64,000 nt of DNA, from contig BCIN01000007.1 of NCBI GenBank assembly GCA_039545335.1, positions 1,046,530 through 1,110,529 on the forward strand, given 5' to 3'. This document shows, piece by piece, positions 5,143-38,763 of this stretch. Position 1 is the first letter of the stretch, and each line of letters begins with the position of its first letter. The notes under the pieces were generated by a model. That model did no database searches, was not told the origin of the DNA, and worked only from the letters and a program-made list of their open reading frames with translations. The position numbers and the translations under genes were made by a program. The stretch comes from Kondoa subrosea. Taxonomy: Eukaryota.

Positions 5143-6487
5143 ATGCTCAGATCGCTCATCAGATCTCCAATCGTATCCTCAGCAACTCAAGTACCTAAAC
5201 GAAACATGTCCAAAGCAGGAGCATTCACGCAAGCTGTCATAGGCATGCATGACTTCATTTGCTGAGCTGCCTTGTACTCACTCATAATGCAGACAGAAGG
5301 TCGCACTATAATCTGGGTAAGACAGACATGGGAGACCAGAAAGTAAGTCTTCCCTGTACACTTTGCGAAGAATTTGAGTGATCTCATTGATGAGCAAAGA
5401 TCATGGATGTAGTCAACACCTGCATCAAGTATGCCCGTAAGTACTCTCTTTTGCTCCTGCCTGAACTTGCTCTCCGTCGAAAATCGAGCTAATATTTTGT
5501 TGTTGACAGCATCTGCCTTCAACTCGCAAACTGCTAGAGTTCTCTGCCTTTTCGGAGATGATCACGAAGAGCTCTGTAGGCTCAAGACTCTGTCTTGTAT
5601 CTCATATGCTGATAAGAAACGAAGGGAGAGACATCATCAAACAAGTCCTTACTCCTTTGACACCAGATGAAGCCAAAGAAGGCATGATGAAGAAGATGGA
5701 TGGTTTCACTAACGCTCATGGAACTATTCTGTTCTTCGAGGACCGAAAAGCTGTTCAAGACCTGGAGAAGTGAGTTGACATTCGCCTAATTTTCTATCCT
5801 ATCTCTTCCCACGTCCGATTGACTTGTGCTTTTATCTCCTCCCGTCGATTTTCTACCGATTCCTCTTTCAACGCTTCTCTCAATATTATAGATGAGCTGA
5901 TGCTTCTCGGCTTGACAGCGGCTGTCCTGCTCAATTCAAAGGCCTTGTCGAATCTTGGTCCAGCCATTCTCACGGCTTGAACGTCAGTCTTCTGAACCAT
6001 TTCCACATTCCGAGCTTGACGTTCATCGCTACGTATATTTAGTCTTTCGCTGTATGGACCGCTTTGGACCAAGATCTAGATTTAGGGGTAAGTGACTGCT
6101 TTGAAGTCTCTTAGGACTCTTCACTGATTGTATCGCAGTGCAATCTCCAAGTAAGCAGAAATTCCTATTATCTTGCTAACAGGCTTTGACCATCTGCGTG
6201 ATCAGCATTACAACCCTATTGTTGACTCTCGTATCATTTCACGTTGGGAAGTACCTCAGACGTATGCTCTTTCCTCTCATTCTTCTGTCACTGTATCGAT
6301 TGACGTCGAGCAGGTGGGCATTACAAGCTCAACTCGTTTTCGGCACTAAGAAGGACACACCAAAAGAAAAGACTTTCAAGGTATGTAGATTGTTTCAGTG
6401 TAAGACTTTGTGCTTATGTCTATGCTTCTTCTATTACTATAGCCTTTAGAAGGCGATAGGGTTCGGGTCGCCGGTACCAAGATGTAG
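5143..6487 (+). CDS. Nitroreductase, Frm2/Hbn1 family (multi-exon)
   Basis: Spliced: MSKAGAFTQAVIDRRSHYNLGK..PSAFNSQTARVLCLFGDDHEEL..HGTILFFED..VWTALD..QHYNPIVD..WALQAQLVFG..KEKTFKPLEGDRVRVAGTKM*. Confidence 0.88.
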
Positions 6488-6934
6488 AAAGTCCGAGCTA
6501 TTAATCGAGGCTGAAGATGACGTTGTAAGGGCAAAAGAAGCAAGATATAGACATGTGCAATGCATAGACTTGTCTCACGTATTTAGCACGTCAGAATCGA
6601 GATTAGCACACGAAGTTTTACCGAAGGCTGATCGTGTCCTGAATCTAGCACAAAGGTCTCTAAGCTACAATCAATACCGCTTGCTTAATAGATATACCTC
6701 GGGTCTCGGCAGTACGTGTCAAAATAGCGTGCGCCGTGTACAGAGCGAGCAGTCAATCAGAAGACAGATTCTAAGTCCTTCGCAAACAAGGTCAAGACGA
6801 ATTAACTTCGAAAGTTTCGATACCGGACTACCTACCTTCAGCTACGCTCTCTTCCTCCCTTCTCTATACCATAACTACAAGCAGCAGATAGCTGGCGGCC
6901 CAAACTGGCGTCCTTTAACAATTCCAAGCAAGGA

Positions 6935-9540: not shown

Positions 9541-12500
9541 ATGGTCGCGCCTCGTAGGTCTGCACGTATCAAGGTCGACACCGAGGAGCATGAACCTGTT
9601 GTTGATGAGCCAAATCAAGCAATCAGTGATGTTGAAATCCCAAGTCAGTCCTTCAATCCTTATGAGTTTTGTTCAGGGTTGTAATACCTCTAGTAGATGA
9701 CAGTGCTGGGTCTGTAGTCGAGGACAAGACATCTGTCGAGAAGAAGCCTGTAAAGAAAGCTGCTAAGTCTACTAAGAAGCCCGCTGCTAAGAAAGTCCGC
9801 AAAAGCGAAGGATCAGCGTCTTCTGATGAGGAAAACTTCGACGAGGAGCTCTCTGGTGCGTTGACAAAGTCTGCTTGCCACGGGCGTGCTCATGAGATAT
9901 GCAGGCGAAGAAGACGAGAAGAAGCCAGCCAAGAAGAAGAAGAAGGCTAAAGTCAGCGGAGGTGTGTCTGATCATGGTTGTCACGGGCATGAGCTGGCTG
10001 ACTCCAAGCGAGGCGGCACTTCCATCGCGCCTCTCAAACGCGGACCTTTGCGCGGTAGATTATCGCACATTAAGGATCTACCTGTTGAAGCGATGTACTT
10101 CTCCGGATATTCCTCTCTGTCTCTGTCACTGATTGTAATTCAGCATGATGATCCTATCCGAAATGGAGCCTCTTGAACTCGTCCGCCTTAGCAGAACCTC
10201 GAAATGGTTTAGAGGAAGTAAGCACGACTCTCGTACTCGTTGATCAGATGCTCATTATTTGCAGTTCTCTTCAATCGTCGTGACGGCGAACCAATTTGGT
10301 TGGCTGCTAAGCAGAACTTGGATTTCCCAGATAATCCGTACCTTTACTTCACTCAGATACGCTAAGATGCTTATGTACGTTCAGTGAGGACATGATTTTA
10401 CCCGCTTGGGCTGCTTTATGCTTCGAAAACGAATGTTCGGTCTGCGCCAAAAAGGGCGTCATGAAAGTTGATTGGGCTTTGCGAAAACGTCTCTGTGGCC
10501 CTTGCGCCAAAGCCAGTATGGATCGTTCAGTCCACCGCTAGTTCTGGATTTTCTCACTGTGAGTATAGATGTCGTGCTCACGTACAATCATGTCGCTTTT
10601 ATGGTGAATACACCTCGAGCTGATCTCATTCGATCAATGATTGCAACCCCGATCGGTACTTCCAAGAGTCGCTACAACTGGGGCATGTCAAGAGACGGCG
10701 TCAATTACCCTCACTTAGGCAGTAGTGCGTCGCACAGCTACTGTACGTAAAATGGCTATAAATCAACTCGAGTCTGACGTGAGTGCGCAGACGTATTCAA
10801 GCCTGACGTCGATGAAGCTTTGAAAATGGTCAAGGACTACAGCCCGCCGTAATTCAAGCTAGGCTACCACTGTATCCAGCGCTGATGCGATCTCTCCACA
10901 GGCAATTCATCAGCGATCCAAATCATTCTCGCTTCGTTGGCTATTCTGAGTGCAACAGGCTCAAAAATGCCTATCGTGAAAGTTTCATGAAGAGTCACCC
11001 TGACGTGGCTGCTCGTCTTGCTATGCGCGATCGACTTGACCGAGATCATCAAGTATGTAGATGACTCTTTCCTTCCAGCCATGCTGAAGTTTCGGTTGCT
11101 TAGCATATCTCGAAATGCAAGACTTGGATTGAAGGCCAGAAGGAGACCAAAAAGCAATCCAAGAATGATGTTATTGCTGACCGAAAGGCTGCCATCATCG
11201 CTAAACTTAAAGAAGATGGTGAAGACGTGGACAATCTGCCACCTGGATTCTTTGATCAGTGAGTGCACCGTATGCTGTGAAATTTGGCCATGCTCATGGG
11301 AAATAGTACGGTCTTCAATCAAGAGTCAGTGAGGTCAAGTGCTTACACTTTCTTCGCGCTAAGCCATGCCGACAGTCGCCCTCTAACGGGCGCTATCTGG
11401 AAGAACAGCAAACCCAAACTTGCTGAACACCTCGAGAAGTTGAAGACTCGTAAGCAGCTAGTCCGGAATTTTGCATGAAGTACTAAGTTGCTATGACCAG
11501 TTGAGCAATCTCAAGAGATTTTCAAAGACTGGACACAAAGCCGCTTGCCAGATTTCAAGGCCACCGACGCCTACGTCAAGGATCATGCCATCCCTGTCAA
11601 TCCGGCTGACGCAGCTAACTTGCCTTCGATTGCTGATCTCTTGAATTCTGCTTGCAAGGTAACATGGCCATTCTGCCATTGCTTGCTAATTGGATTTTCT
11701 GTTAGTGGGCGAAGTACCGACTGAAGAACAATGGACTGCGGCTATCGCTGCTCTCCCCGCTGAAATTGAGGAATGGCGCGAAGAGATCCAGTCTAACGCT
11801 CGCAAGCTCCTTCCTGCAAAGTATCGACAGAAAGGTGACATTCCTGCTCTTGAACGAGCCAGTGAGTGTTCAAAGCTGAATGCCTTCGTTATTCACGTAA
11901 TCTCATCATTTTCTTGATAGACGTCGTCTTCCGTTACAATCCGCAGGGAGAATTGGCAAAACAATCCAAGCAAAAGAAAGGTCTACGTAAATGGCAGAGA
12001 ATGACAGAACAAATGGCTGTATACCGGTGCGGGTCATCAATACAATTTTTAAGTGCAATTCCACTGACTCTCAGATTCGTAGTTCTGGTTTCAACTTTCA
12101 TGATATTCTGACTCATTCCTCGCAGAAAGCATTGAAAACCGAAGATTATCGTAAGCAATCGTTTGCTTAGCTTTTTCATATTTCATGCGCACTGAACTTT
12201 GGCTGCAGCCTACATGGAAGGCAGCTTACAAATACAGATGGACTTTGAGAATTTTGTCTTTGATGAAGAACGTGCAAATGCTCTTACATCTTTGCTCAAG
12301 AAAGGCGACATTGATCCTGCTGCTACAAGTGTGACTGACATCAATGCTTTGGGCGGTCGTTGGGTACGAACTACTTACCCAATCCCTGTGAATTACGAAC
12401 ACTTGGTAAGCGCTCGTGAAAGTCAGCCAGATGTTTCTCATAAGCGGTCCAGCGCTCCTTTGATCTGCTCGTAGTCAGTTGCAGCGAATTCAAGTGGTTT

Positions 12501-25442: not shown

Positions 25443-26010
25443 TTCCCAAACCTGATAAGGTTAGGGTCTAGGATGGATTTTGTTCACGGGGCATCTCGGA
25501 AAATGCTTACTAATAGGGAATCATTCGGACCTTTCGTCTTTCTACACTATCAAGACCTGGTTCTCTGCTTTTGCACTGCTTCTCTCTCTTCAGCTGCATT
25601 ACATTCTCTGATAATTTTCTGTTATGGCTGTGATATTTCTACCTCTCTTCACTGGAAATCGAATGCGATCAGCCCTTATTTGAAGCTGTTTGTTGAATCT
25701 CTTTGTGATCTGGCTACATCTCATGCTGTCCACTTACTCTGTAGCAGTATCTCTTTCCTAGATTATTACTATGCTCTGGTTTTGTTCACTTTAGCACTTA
25801 TTGTTCAGCGGCTGCAGCTATACAAGTCTTGCCGACCTGATATCGCCTACTGTTCCTAGGAACCGCCTGGTATTAAGGATACCATGCTGGTGAGTTGGCG
25901 CACTCTTCTCTCTGTCGTGTTGTAATGTCTCTACCTCAAGTCCATTCATGTCTCTACCGCGTGGTCTATAGAACAGGTGAAGGACGGACTGCGCGGCAGA
26001 TTGAAGCGCA

Positions 26011-26046
26011 CAGCGCTGAGCTGTGCTGAGCTGAGCTGAGCTGAGC
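26011..26046. repeat. (GCTGA)n pentanucleotide microsatellite
   Basis: gcgctgagctgtgctgagctgagctgagctgagcg: about 6 units, one imperfect. Confidence 0.8.
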
Positions 26047-26452
26047 GTGCCGCGCATGCAGATTCGAAAACCGTTGCTTGACCTGTCAGAAGTTGCAAAT
26101 AGTAATTGTGAGTATTAGAAGTTATTGAGGCGATGCGAAACTGCTAGCTCAGCACATGTAACCTCAGCTTGAATTGATCATGAGCCAGAAGTATTTCCCG
26201 TGTAAGTATAGCCGCTGCAAGTGACTACATCATTTCCTTTACATCTTCCAAGCAGGTTTGGGATCTGCCGCAGAGTCGGCTTTCTCTCGACTCATATGAC
26301 CCAGACGATGTAGAAACAATGCGAGCAACGCAGACAACGGACACAATGCGACACAGAATTGCTGCTGCCCTTTTGTTATTTTGAAATGCTTTGTTCTTCA
26401 GTTGCCTGCGACATGGACATCAGATGTACGCCTTGTTCTGCTCATCACTAGC

Positions 26453-33605: not shown

Positions 33606-34669
33606 ATGTTTCACTTCAGCGCTCCAGCAGCGGACAGGGTCTCTTCCAGCTATGTACCGAGCAGGCCGCATCGAGGGTTATCCGAAATGGATCTGGACGA
33701 CGAAGATTTTCAAGCAACTGTCAAATATACTGTTCCAGGTGAAGAGATAGCAGATGCTAAGCAATGGATGCGGTTAGGCGTCTGTTCGTTGCATCGAAGT
33801 CTATAGGCTCATACTATACGAAATAGAGGACATTGGACATACTTGGATACAGCAAATAACGCAGTCTTGGCTGGAGTAGCTGGTAAAGTTGAAAGAGTTA
33901 ACAAGCTAGTCTCTGTCCGGCCAGTCAGAGGAAGATACAAGCCTGAAGTGGGTGACCTGGTCGTTGGCAGAATTGTGGAAGTGCAAGCGAGGAGATGGAA
34001 AGTCGATGTCGGCGCAAGACTGGATGCTGTCCTTATGCTTTCCTCTATCAACCTACCTGGAGGTGTTCAAGTTCGTCTTTCCTCTTACATTGTTGTCTGC
34101 AACTGTCTCATGTGGAATACTAGAGAAGAAAACTTGAATCCGATGAACTGCAAATGCGAACTTTCTTCACCGAAGGCGATCTAGTAGTATGCGAAGTTCA
34201 AGCATTCTTTCAAGATGGTTCCATATCTCTACATACTCGATCTCTGCGGTATGGTAAATTAAGAAACGGTCTACTCGTTCGATCGCCTTCTGCACTCATT
34301 TCTCGACTCAAATCACATTTCATCATCTTACCTTGCGGAGTTCAACTTATTGTCGGTCTCAACGGTTTCATTTGGGTCTCCATTGCTACTTCACCAGTTA
34401 AGGAAGAAGATGGGGATGAATCTGCTTTTTCGCTCTATTCGAACAAGAATGATGATTTGCCTTTGGAGAAACAAGAAGCCATTTCTCGAGTTGCCAAATG
34501 CATTGAGATCTTGGCCGAGTCGGGAGTAAGAATTACTGAAGCTAGAGTTGCTACTTTATGGGAGGCAAGTTTGGAAGGCGAAAGTATTTGGACTGTCAAG
34601 GATTTGTGCAAGGGTGGATTTGGAAGAGTCGAGCTAGTGCAGAAGCTGCCTGTGTTGTGTGAAGCTTGA
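33606..34669 (+). CDS. RRP4: Exosome complex S1/KH subunit Rrp4
   Basis: [97 protein letters not shown]. Confidence 0.96.
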
Positions 34670-35143: not shown

Positions 35144-36110
35144 TTACAAAAGCGATGCGGGCAGGATGTCATCTGAGACTAAATGCCTTGTAAGATCGGT
35201 AGGTGGTACTGTGATCAGATATCAGACCCAAATACTAATATGAGAAGTAATAGAACACACGCTGAGTGAATTGGCCAAATTCGAGCACTTCGAATTCGTC
35301 CGACACAACTTCCGCCAAGGTAGAAGAGCCCGGTTGGCTATTAGGTCTGCTCGATCAGCCTTGGTCTGGGAATGTTGAGCAAATGCACTGACGCTGCTGC
35401 CAAAACGAACTTCAGGCGATATCTTCCTGCAACTCTTACGCTCAAATCCCCAAACACGAAATAAGCGACTGCTTCTCCGCTTGATCCTTCAACGGTCTGC
35501 TTAACGTCAGACACTAGTCTGCCGACTAAAGCTTGTCTTTGCTGCTGCTGTTGAGGCAAGAAATCCATGTCTTGGTTTCCGTTGGCTCCTATCAGTGATG
35601 CGCTGCATATAAGAATGTTGGAATCCGTTCTGTTTTCGCGTACACATGGCAGAGTCAGCAAAACTTTTCTTCACTATTTGACCTTCATGGAGAAAGAGGA
35701 CATACATTTCTTCTAATTCTAGCTCTCTACCATCTTCTATGACAACGAGTTGCAAGACAGGAGGTGGTTGTATCGGAAGTCTACCAAGCAAGCGCAATTC
35801 TAGGCCTGCTGCCAGTCCTCTTTGCGGTTGTTGAACTATTCTGAGATCCATTCGTCTGTTTCGATGTCTCATCAGCACCGTCTCCTGTTGCTTAACAAGA
35901 GAAGAAGTCTTGCCTTTCTGGAGTAAGCGATAAAGATAATCTCTGTCTTCCGCCGCGGGATGAGGTTCGCGAAATGGAAGTAGTAGGCGAAGAAGAAGAG
36001 CCAGAGGATGAAGGTGGGTAAGCTGGTTGTTGGTGATGAGTAGTAAAAGCTGAGTCTTGCCCGACAGGATGGTTTGAGACCGGTTGTTGACCACGAGGAA
36101 AAGAGGCCAT
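35144..36110 (-). CDS. Velvet-domain regulatory protein
   Basis: DLRIVQQPQRGLAAG..LPIQPPPVLQL..LVGRLVS..AYFVFGDLSVRVAGRYRLKFVL..LAEVVSDEFEV..PTDLTRHL: the velvet fold signature. Exon 1 is joined via a GC-AG intron (35856-35913). Confidence 0.88.
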
Positions 36111-36645
36111 GATGTTCTTCTGGTAAAGTGGGATTCTTATCCTAATCTATCCACGCCTGGACACGAGGAGTCAGAGGCTAGAACTCTTGGGATGGCATGG
36201 CAAGAAGGGAACGCACCTTCTGTCTATTCAGTTGTCGGTAAGATTGGATTGAGATTAGTGATGCGCGAGAAGATTGACAAAAGATGAGTGAGTTGATACT
36301 GCTTTGTTATAAGCCGGGACGATAGCTGATGGGATCTGCCCGAACAGGTATCGATCAGTATTCCGAGCACCTTTGCGGGGGTGGAAACAACTCACTATTG
36401 AAATGCCAATACACAATCAGCCTCATTGCAGAACGCTGCAAAGATCCAATGAATGCAAGGTCAAATAAGCGGTCGAGAGTAGTTGTTTCAGCAGAAGGAG
36501 CGAGTGGACAGAAAGCGGACTCGGTGATGTAAGGGTATCTTCGTTTTGTCTGTTTTTACTTTTTTGCAGATCCTTTCTTGGTAATGGCGACGTAATCCAG
36601 CAGTGAAGTAAGCGGTAATTTTGAGTTTTCGCAAAAAGACGAATG

Positions 36646-36874
36646 CCGTTTTTGGGCGGCTAGACTAAGCAAAGTTTTGAAGGACCTGACCCTGATAATC
36701 CGGTCCTGATTCCACGTCAAGAAAGCAAAGAGTACTGGACCAAGGGAAGAAGACCGAACGAAGGGCCATTCGCCGAAAGGCGCAGCCAGCAAATCAAAGT
36801 GACGTTCAGAACCTGATAACAGAGCCGGAATCAGGGCGCGAAACTTTAAAACTTTCCCTAGTGCCCAAAAGCGG
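36646..36874 (+). other. Nested imperfect inverted repeat / candidate structured RNA
   Basis: Five nested complementary arms plus an internal CGCC-GAAA-GGCG hairpin; details under findings. Confidence 0.6.
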
Positions 36875-37733
36875 AAGATCAGCAATCGGCAACGCCAACA
36901 GCGTTTCCGGCTCTACGTCAGCTCTATGCACATTGTGATTTCTATCCTACGTGATGCTCAATGTTCTAATTCCCAACATCGTCAGCGAAATTTGCCAACG
37001 TCCCTTTAAATGAGTCTCTTGGCGGAAAGCACAATAAGGCCACGTGTGTTGAAGAAGAGAGACAAGTGATTATTACTACAGTCATGTAATTGCAAATCGG
37101 CAGAAATCCACGAAATCCATTGTTTCCGTTGCCGGCTGTGTCAATGTCTTCATGGCACCAACCAGTGTCTATCCTTCTCGTTGATCTTCCTCTTTGATCG
37201 CAAGCACGCGCATGCAATATCATAGCGAACCCATCAAGCAAGAAGGCAAGAAGAAGTAGCTAGCCCTTTGTATGCCGTAGTAGACTATCGCATGCAATAA
37301 TCGAACAGCAGCTGTCCGGCTATGACTACCTCAGGAGACAAGGGTGTGCTCAGGCTGTCAGACATAGCAAACAGCAGGATAATGAGCGCATGAGTCTCTT
37401 CGTCGCCTAGTCTGCAGCTGGTATACAGGACAAGGATAGATCACAATAGCGACAGACGGAAAAGCGTGCCAGCGCAAGGAAAGAGAAACAGACCCAAATC
37501 TGAGCCGGAAAGGAAAGGGATGCTGTAAGGAGTAGATTATAGATCAAAGCAGGTTGACCAAGTAGACACAGAAAGAGCTAGACCGATACCACGAGTGAAA
37601 GAGGTAATTCAAGTATCTGATGTTGTTGGTCAGAGAAGTGATGTGAAAATGCAACCAAAATCTTGAGCGCTAGAGTATTTACAGGAGTTCTTCTTCTTCT
37701 TGTCTCGATCTTCTCTTCTAAAGCTCCCGCACT

Positions 37734-38763
37734 TTACGTGATGTACGGTTTGACTGATGTCCAAGCACTGTATAAAGCAACAAGGCTCATCAGCCCCAAA
37801 ACCGATTGAGTATTGAACCGCTTCTTACGCTGCACCGGCAGTCATCAAACCACTAGCGATCAACATCGGCCTTACACCAGCTGCATCAACGGATATAAGT
37901 ATATAACATCTTCACTCGAAGTAAAGTCTACCTGTACTCCTCCAAATAGCACCTGTCCCAGCCCCAGCAGCCATGCTCCCCCAAATATCGTGCCTTCCTC
38001 TATATTTGTCTATACTCGAGTTGATTCCATTGTACAGTAAAGCTGTTCATGAAACAACACGTCAAAAACCATCACACAGTTTTTAAATGACATGATTCCA
38101 ACGAACCTAATACACCCGCATTGTTACCGACGAAAGATCCTCTACTCGTCATAGCGTTCAAAACGGTATTCAACCTCAACCTGAACGGTGCCGATTGTCT
38201 TATTGGTGCTTTAACTCCTCCTGGCTGACTACTTCCTGCCGCCGCCGCTGTAGCTTCTGAAGCAGCTGAAGCTTGATTTATAGGTAATCCATCCACTCCA
38301 AGTTTACCAGCAGCAGCTTGAGCAGAAGCGATTGGCGAAGGCATTGATTTAGAGTAGATTGGTCTGAAAAAACCTTCCCTTAAACCCCATAAACCACCTA
38401 GCGCCAGACCGGAAAGATAAGTAGAACCAGTTCCATAACATAGTTCATCACCAAAACCTGTGTCTCGCAACATCAGGCGCCATATTCTACATGTATATAG
38501 AGTTGTCTGATGTTGAGCACACCTCGGGATGGTAAAACTCCCTTTGTTCCTTCTAAAGTATTCAACTGTCCATCTTCTAATGTCAAGTAGTCGAGTTGGC
38601 CTGATTGAGCTTGAGCCAAAGGGTGAAAACGAGAGAAATCATTTGAATTTGAGAAAATGGCTTCAGTGCTTAGTGAGTCCCCCAAGACAGATGATGTAGA
38701 AGGTTTAGAAAATTGTGTGCCTCTCAGTATGGAAGAAGCAGTCTCTGGTTGCTGATCTGTCAT
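37734..38763 (-). CDS. TIM23: Mitochondrial inner membrane translocase Tim23
   Basis: HPLA..LDYLTLED..VLPSRGFGDELCYGTGSTYLSGLALGGLWGLREG..RLRLNTVLNAMTSRGSFVGNNAGVL..LYNGINSSI..RGRHDIWGSMAAGAGTGAIW. Confidence 0.95.

Follow-up and report, generated by a model that had tools for sequence, protein, structure and literature searches.

In the fungal TPP riboswitch and in the APE2 splicing thermosensor of yeast an alternative pairing hides or frees splice sites, and U3 snoRNA carries its boxes in the order C', B, C and D. In basidiomycetes, structured RNAs are poorly charted, the group having been skipped by a published fungal covariation screen (as the available part of its account indicates) and its SRP RNAs being missed by standard models. 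The available part of PMC4605306 describes basidiomycete SRP RNAs as aberrant and as escaping the standard Rfam models, and its supplements hold 152 of them, which bear on any SRP verdict. Among box H/ACA RNAs the H box has the consensus ANANNA, and the pseudouridylation pocket, 3 nt or more per side, lies 15-16 nt from the box, as set out in the excerpt of PMC7991803 used here; excerpts of PMC8216456 and PMC8476143 place fungal H/ACA RNAs in introns, and an excerpt of PMC7601244 derives vertebrate U17 from introns of a non-coding host gene. An orphan fold beside a velvet gene would either fill a gap in the lineage's set of housekeeping-type RNAs or give access to control of velvet at the RNA level; in the literature searched on such control, no folded leader element was found.

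Here we describe such a fold in a 64,000-nt stretch of the Kondoa subrosea genome (the window, contig C7:1046530-1110529), and compare it with these systems. The genome is that of a basidiomycete, 18.9 Mb in 27 contigs; the proteins closest to its Rrp4 are 85% identical, and mushrooms, smuts and Phaffia are roughly equidistant from it at 55-75%, depending on the part of the protein. We find a stable, unique, non-coding fold that appears, on the sequence comparisons made, to match no known RNA family, and that is a prediction from a single genome. It is rod-shaped, some 230-290 bases long, and most likely part of an unannotated RNA. The features that define the locus are as follows.

36646-36874: structured element (the rod), between the velvet-domain gene and the Tim17-family gene, both on the minus strand
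35341-36110, minus strand: velvet-domain gene, with Pfam PF11754 in two ORFs
38072-38638, minus strand: Tim17-family gene
36646-57 with 36863-74, plus strand: rod helix
36660-63 with 36858-61, plus strand: rod helix
36671-82 with 36844-55, plus strand: rod helix
36690-36703 with 36825-36836, plus strand: rod helix, with the alternative register 36703-13 with 36827-37
36720-36799, plus strand: apical loop, A-rich and weakly folded (U-rich on the minus strand)
36764-36787, plus strand: apical hairpin GGC-CATT-CGCC-GAAA-GGCG-CA-GCC

The first ATGs of velvet are at 36110, opening a 72-codon ORF, and at 35872. The 72-codon ORF (35892-36110, minus strand) has its stop 20 nt ahead of the ATG of the velvet-domain frame, with no evident intron to join the two, and is possibly a long uORF or the product of an unusual splice.

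The original prediction of a nested stem-loop upstream of velvet is borne out: all six of its arm pairs lie where they had been placed, as does the CGCC-GAAA-GGCG hairpin at 36771-82. A fold z-score, the check it had proposed, finds the rod (36646-36874) better than all 200 shuffles on either strand. On the plus strand the MFE is -78.1 kcal/mol, the centroid -63.7 and z -4.93 (0/200 shuffles as good), and on the minus strand the MFE is -81.7, the centroid -77.3 and z -3.54 (again 0/200); these ends were picked post hoc, and looser ends give z -3.32 (plus) and -2.54 (minus), with minus folds at wider ends falling between -1.41 and -2.42. The background for these values consists of three hand-picked controls, namely two flanks and one other nested-repeat site. 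The flanking 231-nt controls give z +1.80 and +0.83, so that the flanks are unstructured; the other site, 25987-26277, consists of nested inverted repeats of GCTGA-type short repeats and at z -0.58 folds no better than shuffles. Folded as single-stranded DNA the rod is weaker (z -3.07). It contains the longest of the 83 inverted pairs in the window that are spaced at most 300 nt apart, and its helices are separated by internal loops of unrelated sequence.

The finer anatomy of the prediction fared less evenly. The predicted fold pairs CCCTGAT-AA-TCCGG (36690-36703) with CCGGA-ATCAGGG (36825-36836), a register mutually exclusive with 36703-13/36827-37 and favoured over it by the fold program; the complementarity of the proposed fourth arm, 36703-13/36827-37, is thus present but excluded by the predicted register. 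Copies of CCTGATAA, thought to be bulged on both sides, do occur at 36691 and 36812, but the 5' copy is paired in the best fold. Similarly, ACGTCA/TGACGT (36714-19/36800-05) exists in the DNA but is absent from the MFE and centroid of the plus RNA, and the alternative helix 36821-30/36905-14, of 10 bp, is likewise present but may be a chance pairing, the surrounding 1.2 kb holding 13 inverted pairs in all. The statement that all arm imperfections are plus-strand G-U pairs is right for the three that were listed, while other registers give G-U pairs on the minus strand. In a strand-neutral search the two longest helices have one central mismatch each, G-U on the plus strand and A-C on the minus. 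An alignment of one arm to its partner's reverse complement gives near-perfect blocks, differing by transitions, with unrelated loops between them, among these an ungapped 7-nt block that matches at 1/7; this blockwise similarity suggests a pattern of helices, not of even decay.

The apical hairpin is the sole perfectly paired one among the four all-GC-flanked GNRA sites on both strands of the window (128 kb), and is as stable on the minus strand, where it has a UUUC loop and tandem G-U pairs. The loop around it has the highest AT skew (0.565) among the 100-nt bins of 35300-38199, and the inner 92 nt fold like shuffles (z -0.21), the GNRA hairpin excepted.

Searches for relatives returned none. 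The 23-nt core pattern had 0 matches in metagenome contigs and a relaxed version 0 in viral contigs; an alignment search with Rrp4 yielded 188 candidate stretches, 0 of them confirmed, an Rrp4 search of GTDB gave an unrelated bacterial match (1/140), and a velvet exon search gave 0/893 candidates. A covariance model built from the single sequence (29 pairs, one mis-set) found only the element itself in the window, and in 17 loci (35.6 kb) one 26-nt match with an E of 2.7. Scans against Rfam, which had been proposed as a check, were blank, with 0 matches in the window at gathering and 0 at E<=10 in 36300-37300 and 36620-36945, a blank that is weak evidence in this genome because a C/D-snoRNA-like intron stretch likewise gave 0 at E<=1. 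No tRNA or tmRNA was found in the window.

We consider the rod a real, unusual, single-copy orphan fold and probably RNA. The original reading as a plus-strand structured RNA is still the best one, although the minus strand has a case of its own, and several further features bear on it.

36876-36881, plus strand: H-box-like ANANNA (AGATCA), one base past the rod
36882-36929, plus strand: second small hairpin, core 36887-36909, overlapping the alternative partner 36905-14
36930-36932, plus strand: candidate ACA box directly after the second hairpin; the RNA 3' end would be 36935
36608-36985, plus strand: candidate (putative) 378-nt host intron, GTAAGC...CTAAT (36966-70)...CAG

For the plus strand speak the z of -4.93, the unstructured flanks, the G-U pairs at the centres of the helices, the GAAA tetraloop and the A-rich loops. 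Against it, the minus fold is lower in energy, with a better-defined ensemble and G-U pairs of its own, and a plus host transcript would overlap the velvet leader head to head. We tentatively favour, at somewhat less than an even chance, the model in which selection maintains the rod as the secondary structure of a non-coding RNA, so far unannotated, that is transcribed on the plus strand and leads away from velvet. Such an RNA would presumably be a product of RNA polymerase II, polymerase III being disfavoured on this strand by the five T at 36650-54 and by the lack of a T run after the rod. In its likeliest form, an RNA of about 290 nt (36646-36935) would be trimmed from the 378-nt intron of a non-coding host transcript, H/ACA proteins would then cap or protect it at AGATCA and ACA, and the RNA could act as a scaffold that binds protein or RNA through a contact surface formed by the A-rich loop and the GNRA hairpin. 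A scaffold would fit better than a pseudouridylation guide, as no guide pocket lies 15-16 nt from either box in the two hairpins checked: the lower stem of the 5' hairpin is closed (12-13 bp), and in the 3' hairpin the loop, at 20 nt from ACA, has one strand of 2 nt and one of 17. This combination of intron release, H/ACA-protein protection and a snR30-like scaffold role, drawn by analogy, we regard as unlikely when taken as a whole.

Several of its elements carry limits of their own. The H and ACA boxes are short motifs spotted post hoc, and AGATCA could occur by chance; the closing GCA/TGC stem (3 bp) of the second hairpin is in the MFE and not in the centroid of the folded piece. The 378-nt host-intron span is predicted to fold almost end to end, 36638-45 pairing with 36977-83, and compares with introns of 53-64 nt (read by eye) in neighbouring genes; its bracketing signals may be due to chance, given that GTAAG occurs three times antisense within velvet or its leader (plus-strand copies at 35923, 36018 and 36238). 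The intron-like GTAAGG...TTTGCAG at 36529-36569 is where the original prediction had put it but is weak as an intron, with a length of 41 nt against 53-64 nt in the neighbours and with 133 copies of GTAAG in the window where chance would give 94; read on the opposite strand, it serves equally well as an A-rich exon of the velvet leader. Coding explanations have no frame to use: all three plus frames are closed over the element, open stretches of 77 and 67 residues have no usable Atlas match, and both an antizyme-like frameshift at TCC TGA and small plus ORFs were rejected.

The minus strand offers its own candidate features.

36706-36759, minus strand: candidate (putative) 54-nt intron, GTTCGG...TTGAC..., inside the loop
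36665-36769, minus strand: 34-codon uORF, its AUG in the apical hairpin, with the 54-nt intron candidate in frame within it
36520-36436, 36395-36336, 36299-36220 and 36216-36157, minus strand: candidate velvet leader introns, read by eye
36633-36919, minus strand: 287-nt fold in which five U follow a weak terminal stem; its 5' end lies close to a UGUUG loop (36901-36897)

The rod could also be a decayed MITE or other foldback transposon, or a DNA-level relic, with no RNA role, of a local inverted duplication in the velvet promoter. The inverted arms do flank a short spacer, as in a MITE, and the genome has 9 occurrences of the terminal 12-mer and 1 of a reversed control; 0/7 of the other 12-mer sites, however, have a partner arm or any further similarity. 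The genome-wide count that had been proposed as a check finds the rod single-copy in 18.9 Mb (one copy by DNA search and one for the core pattern), with no target-site duplication and with differing flanks, and we drop the suggestion of a MITE as barely credible. In a relic, the words ACGT, GATAA and CCTGAT would recur as transcription-factor sites or as by-products. In favour of this reading speak the arms, colinear for about 55 positions of the alignment and containing short tandem repeats (CCTGA, three copies), an inner loop that shuffles match in folding, the occurrence within 145 nt of four of the window's 14 CCTGATWM and, as the possible enhancer suggested earlier would also have it, four T(G/T)ACGT sites in 36590-36920 (331 nt). 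Yet ACGT clusters are as dense at 5981-6593 and 10745-11001, so that those here are not special, the GNRA hairpin lies outside the repeat, the mismatches cluster in loops and are transitions within helices, and the fold as single-stranded DNA is the weaker one (z -3.07). On this evidence an inverted-duplication relic at the DNA level is improbable, though far less so than a transposon.

Within RNA, the competing accounts read the minus strand. In one, which we judge possible if rather doubtful and which is compatible with the plus-strand RNA and not exclusive of it, velvet would have a long leader with several introns, starting near 36920-36930, and the rod would act in cis from the 5' end of this leader, modulating how the long velvet isoform is spliced and translated and how its uORF is used. 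One register would pair the branch point (36720-16) and the 3' splice site (36709-06) of the 54-nt intron, and the other would pair the next exon and so free branch point and acceptor. The 54-nt candidate resembles the Rrp4 and Tim23 introns of the same genome in size and signals (Rrp4 introns of 53 and 54 nt with donors GTTCGT and GTTAGG; a Tim23 intron with GTTCGT and a TTGAC branch), the pairing of ACGTCA with TGACGT covers its branch point, arm 4 covers its acceptor, beyond which lie two more, and the four further leader intron candidates downstream form a chain that reaches velvet. The minus fold has a well-defined ensemble, and in Histoplasma a velvet gene, VEA1, has a regulated long leader, according to the available part of bioRxiv 10.64898/2026.08.26.747414, which makes it a loose precedent, as are the structured yeast introns of PMC12350175. 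ATGs are scarce on the minus strand over the element region, as expected for a velvet leader: 3 of the 15 in 36114-36930 are on the minus strand (12 on the plus), the total being below 199/200 shuffles, against 11 of 27 in 36931-37700, a boundary chosen after looking. Against a leader role, the central mismatches of the two longest helices become A-C and the tetraloop UUUC on the minus strand, z is weaker there (-3.54, and -1.41 to -2.42 with wider ends), spans of the form GTTCG...YAG of such size number 31 against 23 by chance, and the start of velvet may lie near 36500 in a stretch rich in pyrimidines, in which case the mRNA would not include the rod. Quite improbable, in our estimate, is the sharper version, in which the velvet mRNA would carry at its 5' end a splicing switch with two states: one register would hide the branch point and the first acceptor, and the other would free both, or shift splicing to acceptors 14 and 20 nt on. 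About as improbable is a stand-alone minus-strand polymerase III RNA (36919-36633, 287 nt), perhaps split by the 54-nt spliceosomal intron and in its extreme form a highly divergent SRP RNA. Its start with G, the terminal stem followed by five U with internal U runs only four long, the UGUUG loop near the 5' end, the long rod with two apical hairpins and a length near the 280 nt given for the C. neoformans SRP RNA in the excerpt of PMC4605306 all suit it, and no SRP RNA was found in the genome, the element included, with RF01502, RF00169 and RF00017, in searches that scored 26/107, 52/1262 and 25/233 candidates respectively. The terminal stem is weak, however, and the whole minus fold reaches only z -2.42; by eye, the minus strand lacks both a GNAR/GNRA loop and the internal loop of helix 8, whether the intron is kept or removed. 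On the plus strand, C-A and A-C are apposed in the hairpin, but its 5' side is the longer by 2 nt, and helix 6, a 5' Alu hairpin and a U run are all absent.

If true, the velvet switch would change the frame and length of the uORF and hence the output of a master regulator of fungal development; it would also represent, in a basidiomycete, a new family of elements that resemble riboswitches or thermometers. Splice-site prediction is loose in this genome owing to degenerate signals in the Rrp4 introns (33773-33826 and 34071-34123, plus strand), which have GTTAGG and GTTCGT donors and CTCAT branch-like sites. Elsewhere on the minus strand, only AAG (36217-36219) separates the intron candidates 36299-36220 and 36216-36157, a possible micro-exon, and 37412-37650 holds intron candidates at 37589-37523 and 37493-37412 with short ORFs only (e.g. 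26 codons at 37365-37285), possibly a spliced non-coding transcript or a far-upstream velvet leader.

Known families were tried on the locus individually. As helix 8 of SRP RNA the plus strand has a GNRA loop and the C-A/A-C appositions but an internal loop of 4 by 2 nt, a U as neighbour and no lower helix, and the minus strand has UUUC; no stable hairpin lies 5' of the GNRA hairpin in the centroid folds to serve as helix 6, and UGUUG and the five U are on the minus strand while GNRA is on the plus, not the same strand. A loose SRP 5'-motif pattern was uninformative (1920 matches against 1420 in the control). The snR30/U17 elements m1 (up to 2 mismatches) and m2 (up to 1 mismatch) are absent from 36875-37060, so that the element works like the snR30/U17 architecture at best and is not a family member; nor, on the pocket test, is it a guide H/ACA RNA. 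U3 was rejected for lack of a CUGA box D past 36819 on the plus strand and of UGAUGA on either strand, and no convincing U3 gene was found in the genome with RF01846; the SRP RNA and U3 of this genome may be divergent or split by introns. No model of RNase MRP or RNase P RNA matched at the element, candidates for both being on other contigs, and nothing in 34000-38200 matches a template for the putative telomere repeat within 1 mismatch. Compared by eye with their consensus, neither the TPP aptamer nor the cores of the hammerhead, hairpin and twister ribozymes fitted, and a shortened search found no SSU rRNA in the assembly.

Some of these searches turned up candidates in their own right. Contig C2:861814-861863 (plus strand), after a ribosomal-protein-like gene, has an m1-like motif, a paired upper stem, an exact m2, a short lower stem and ACA, and is probably a snR30/U17 3' hairpin and a better candidate than the element; it has no Rfam U17 match, its pattern matches once against 3 times in a reversed control, and its MFE lacks this fold. 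An RNase MRP candidate (contig C2:990635-990785, minus strand, E 7.6e-6) and an RNase P candidate (contig C6:398888-399212, plus strand, E 9.1e-4) both fall below the Rfam cut-off with conserved regions recognisable. Four 10-base repeats in two variants at contig C1:1-40 are a possible non-canonical, variable telomere repeat.

Set against the described systems, the element shares something with each. Like basidiomycete SRP RNA, as presented in the excerpt of PMC4605306, it is about 280 nt long, forms a long rod with internal loops and is missed by Rfam, and it has a GNRA hairpin with an A-C apposition (plus strand) or a UGUNR motif with an oligo-U end (minus strand); unlike that RNA, its features are split over opposite strands, neither of which has helix 6, helix 8, the Alu part and a terminator together. 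With box H/ACA guides it shares, on the plus strand, a candidate hairpin-H-hairpin-ACA order and a possible intronic position, and it differs in having no pocket 15-16 nt from either box, a 229-nt 5' hairpin and no Rfam match, as judged by the excerpts of PMC7991803 and PMC8216456. The yeast zipper stems, in the available part of PMC12350175, resemble it as long stems that shorten an over-long intron or cover splice signals, although the host here would be non-coding or a 5' leader (a putative intron in either case); the linker is 133 nt with the rod alone, outside the 42-85 nt of that account, and about 80 nt with a weak 4-bp outer stem. On the leader reading, a pairing switch over leader-intron splice sites together with a uORF recalls the TPP riboswitch and the APE2 thermosensor, unlike which it has no Rfam match to TPP or another riboswitch. 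On the plus-strand reading that we favour, the likeness is to snR30/U17 as outlined in the excerpt of PMC7601244: a long pocketless 5' hairpin, an H-box-like motif, a further hairpin and a candidate ACA box.
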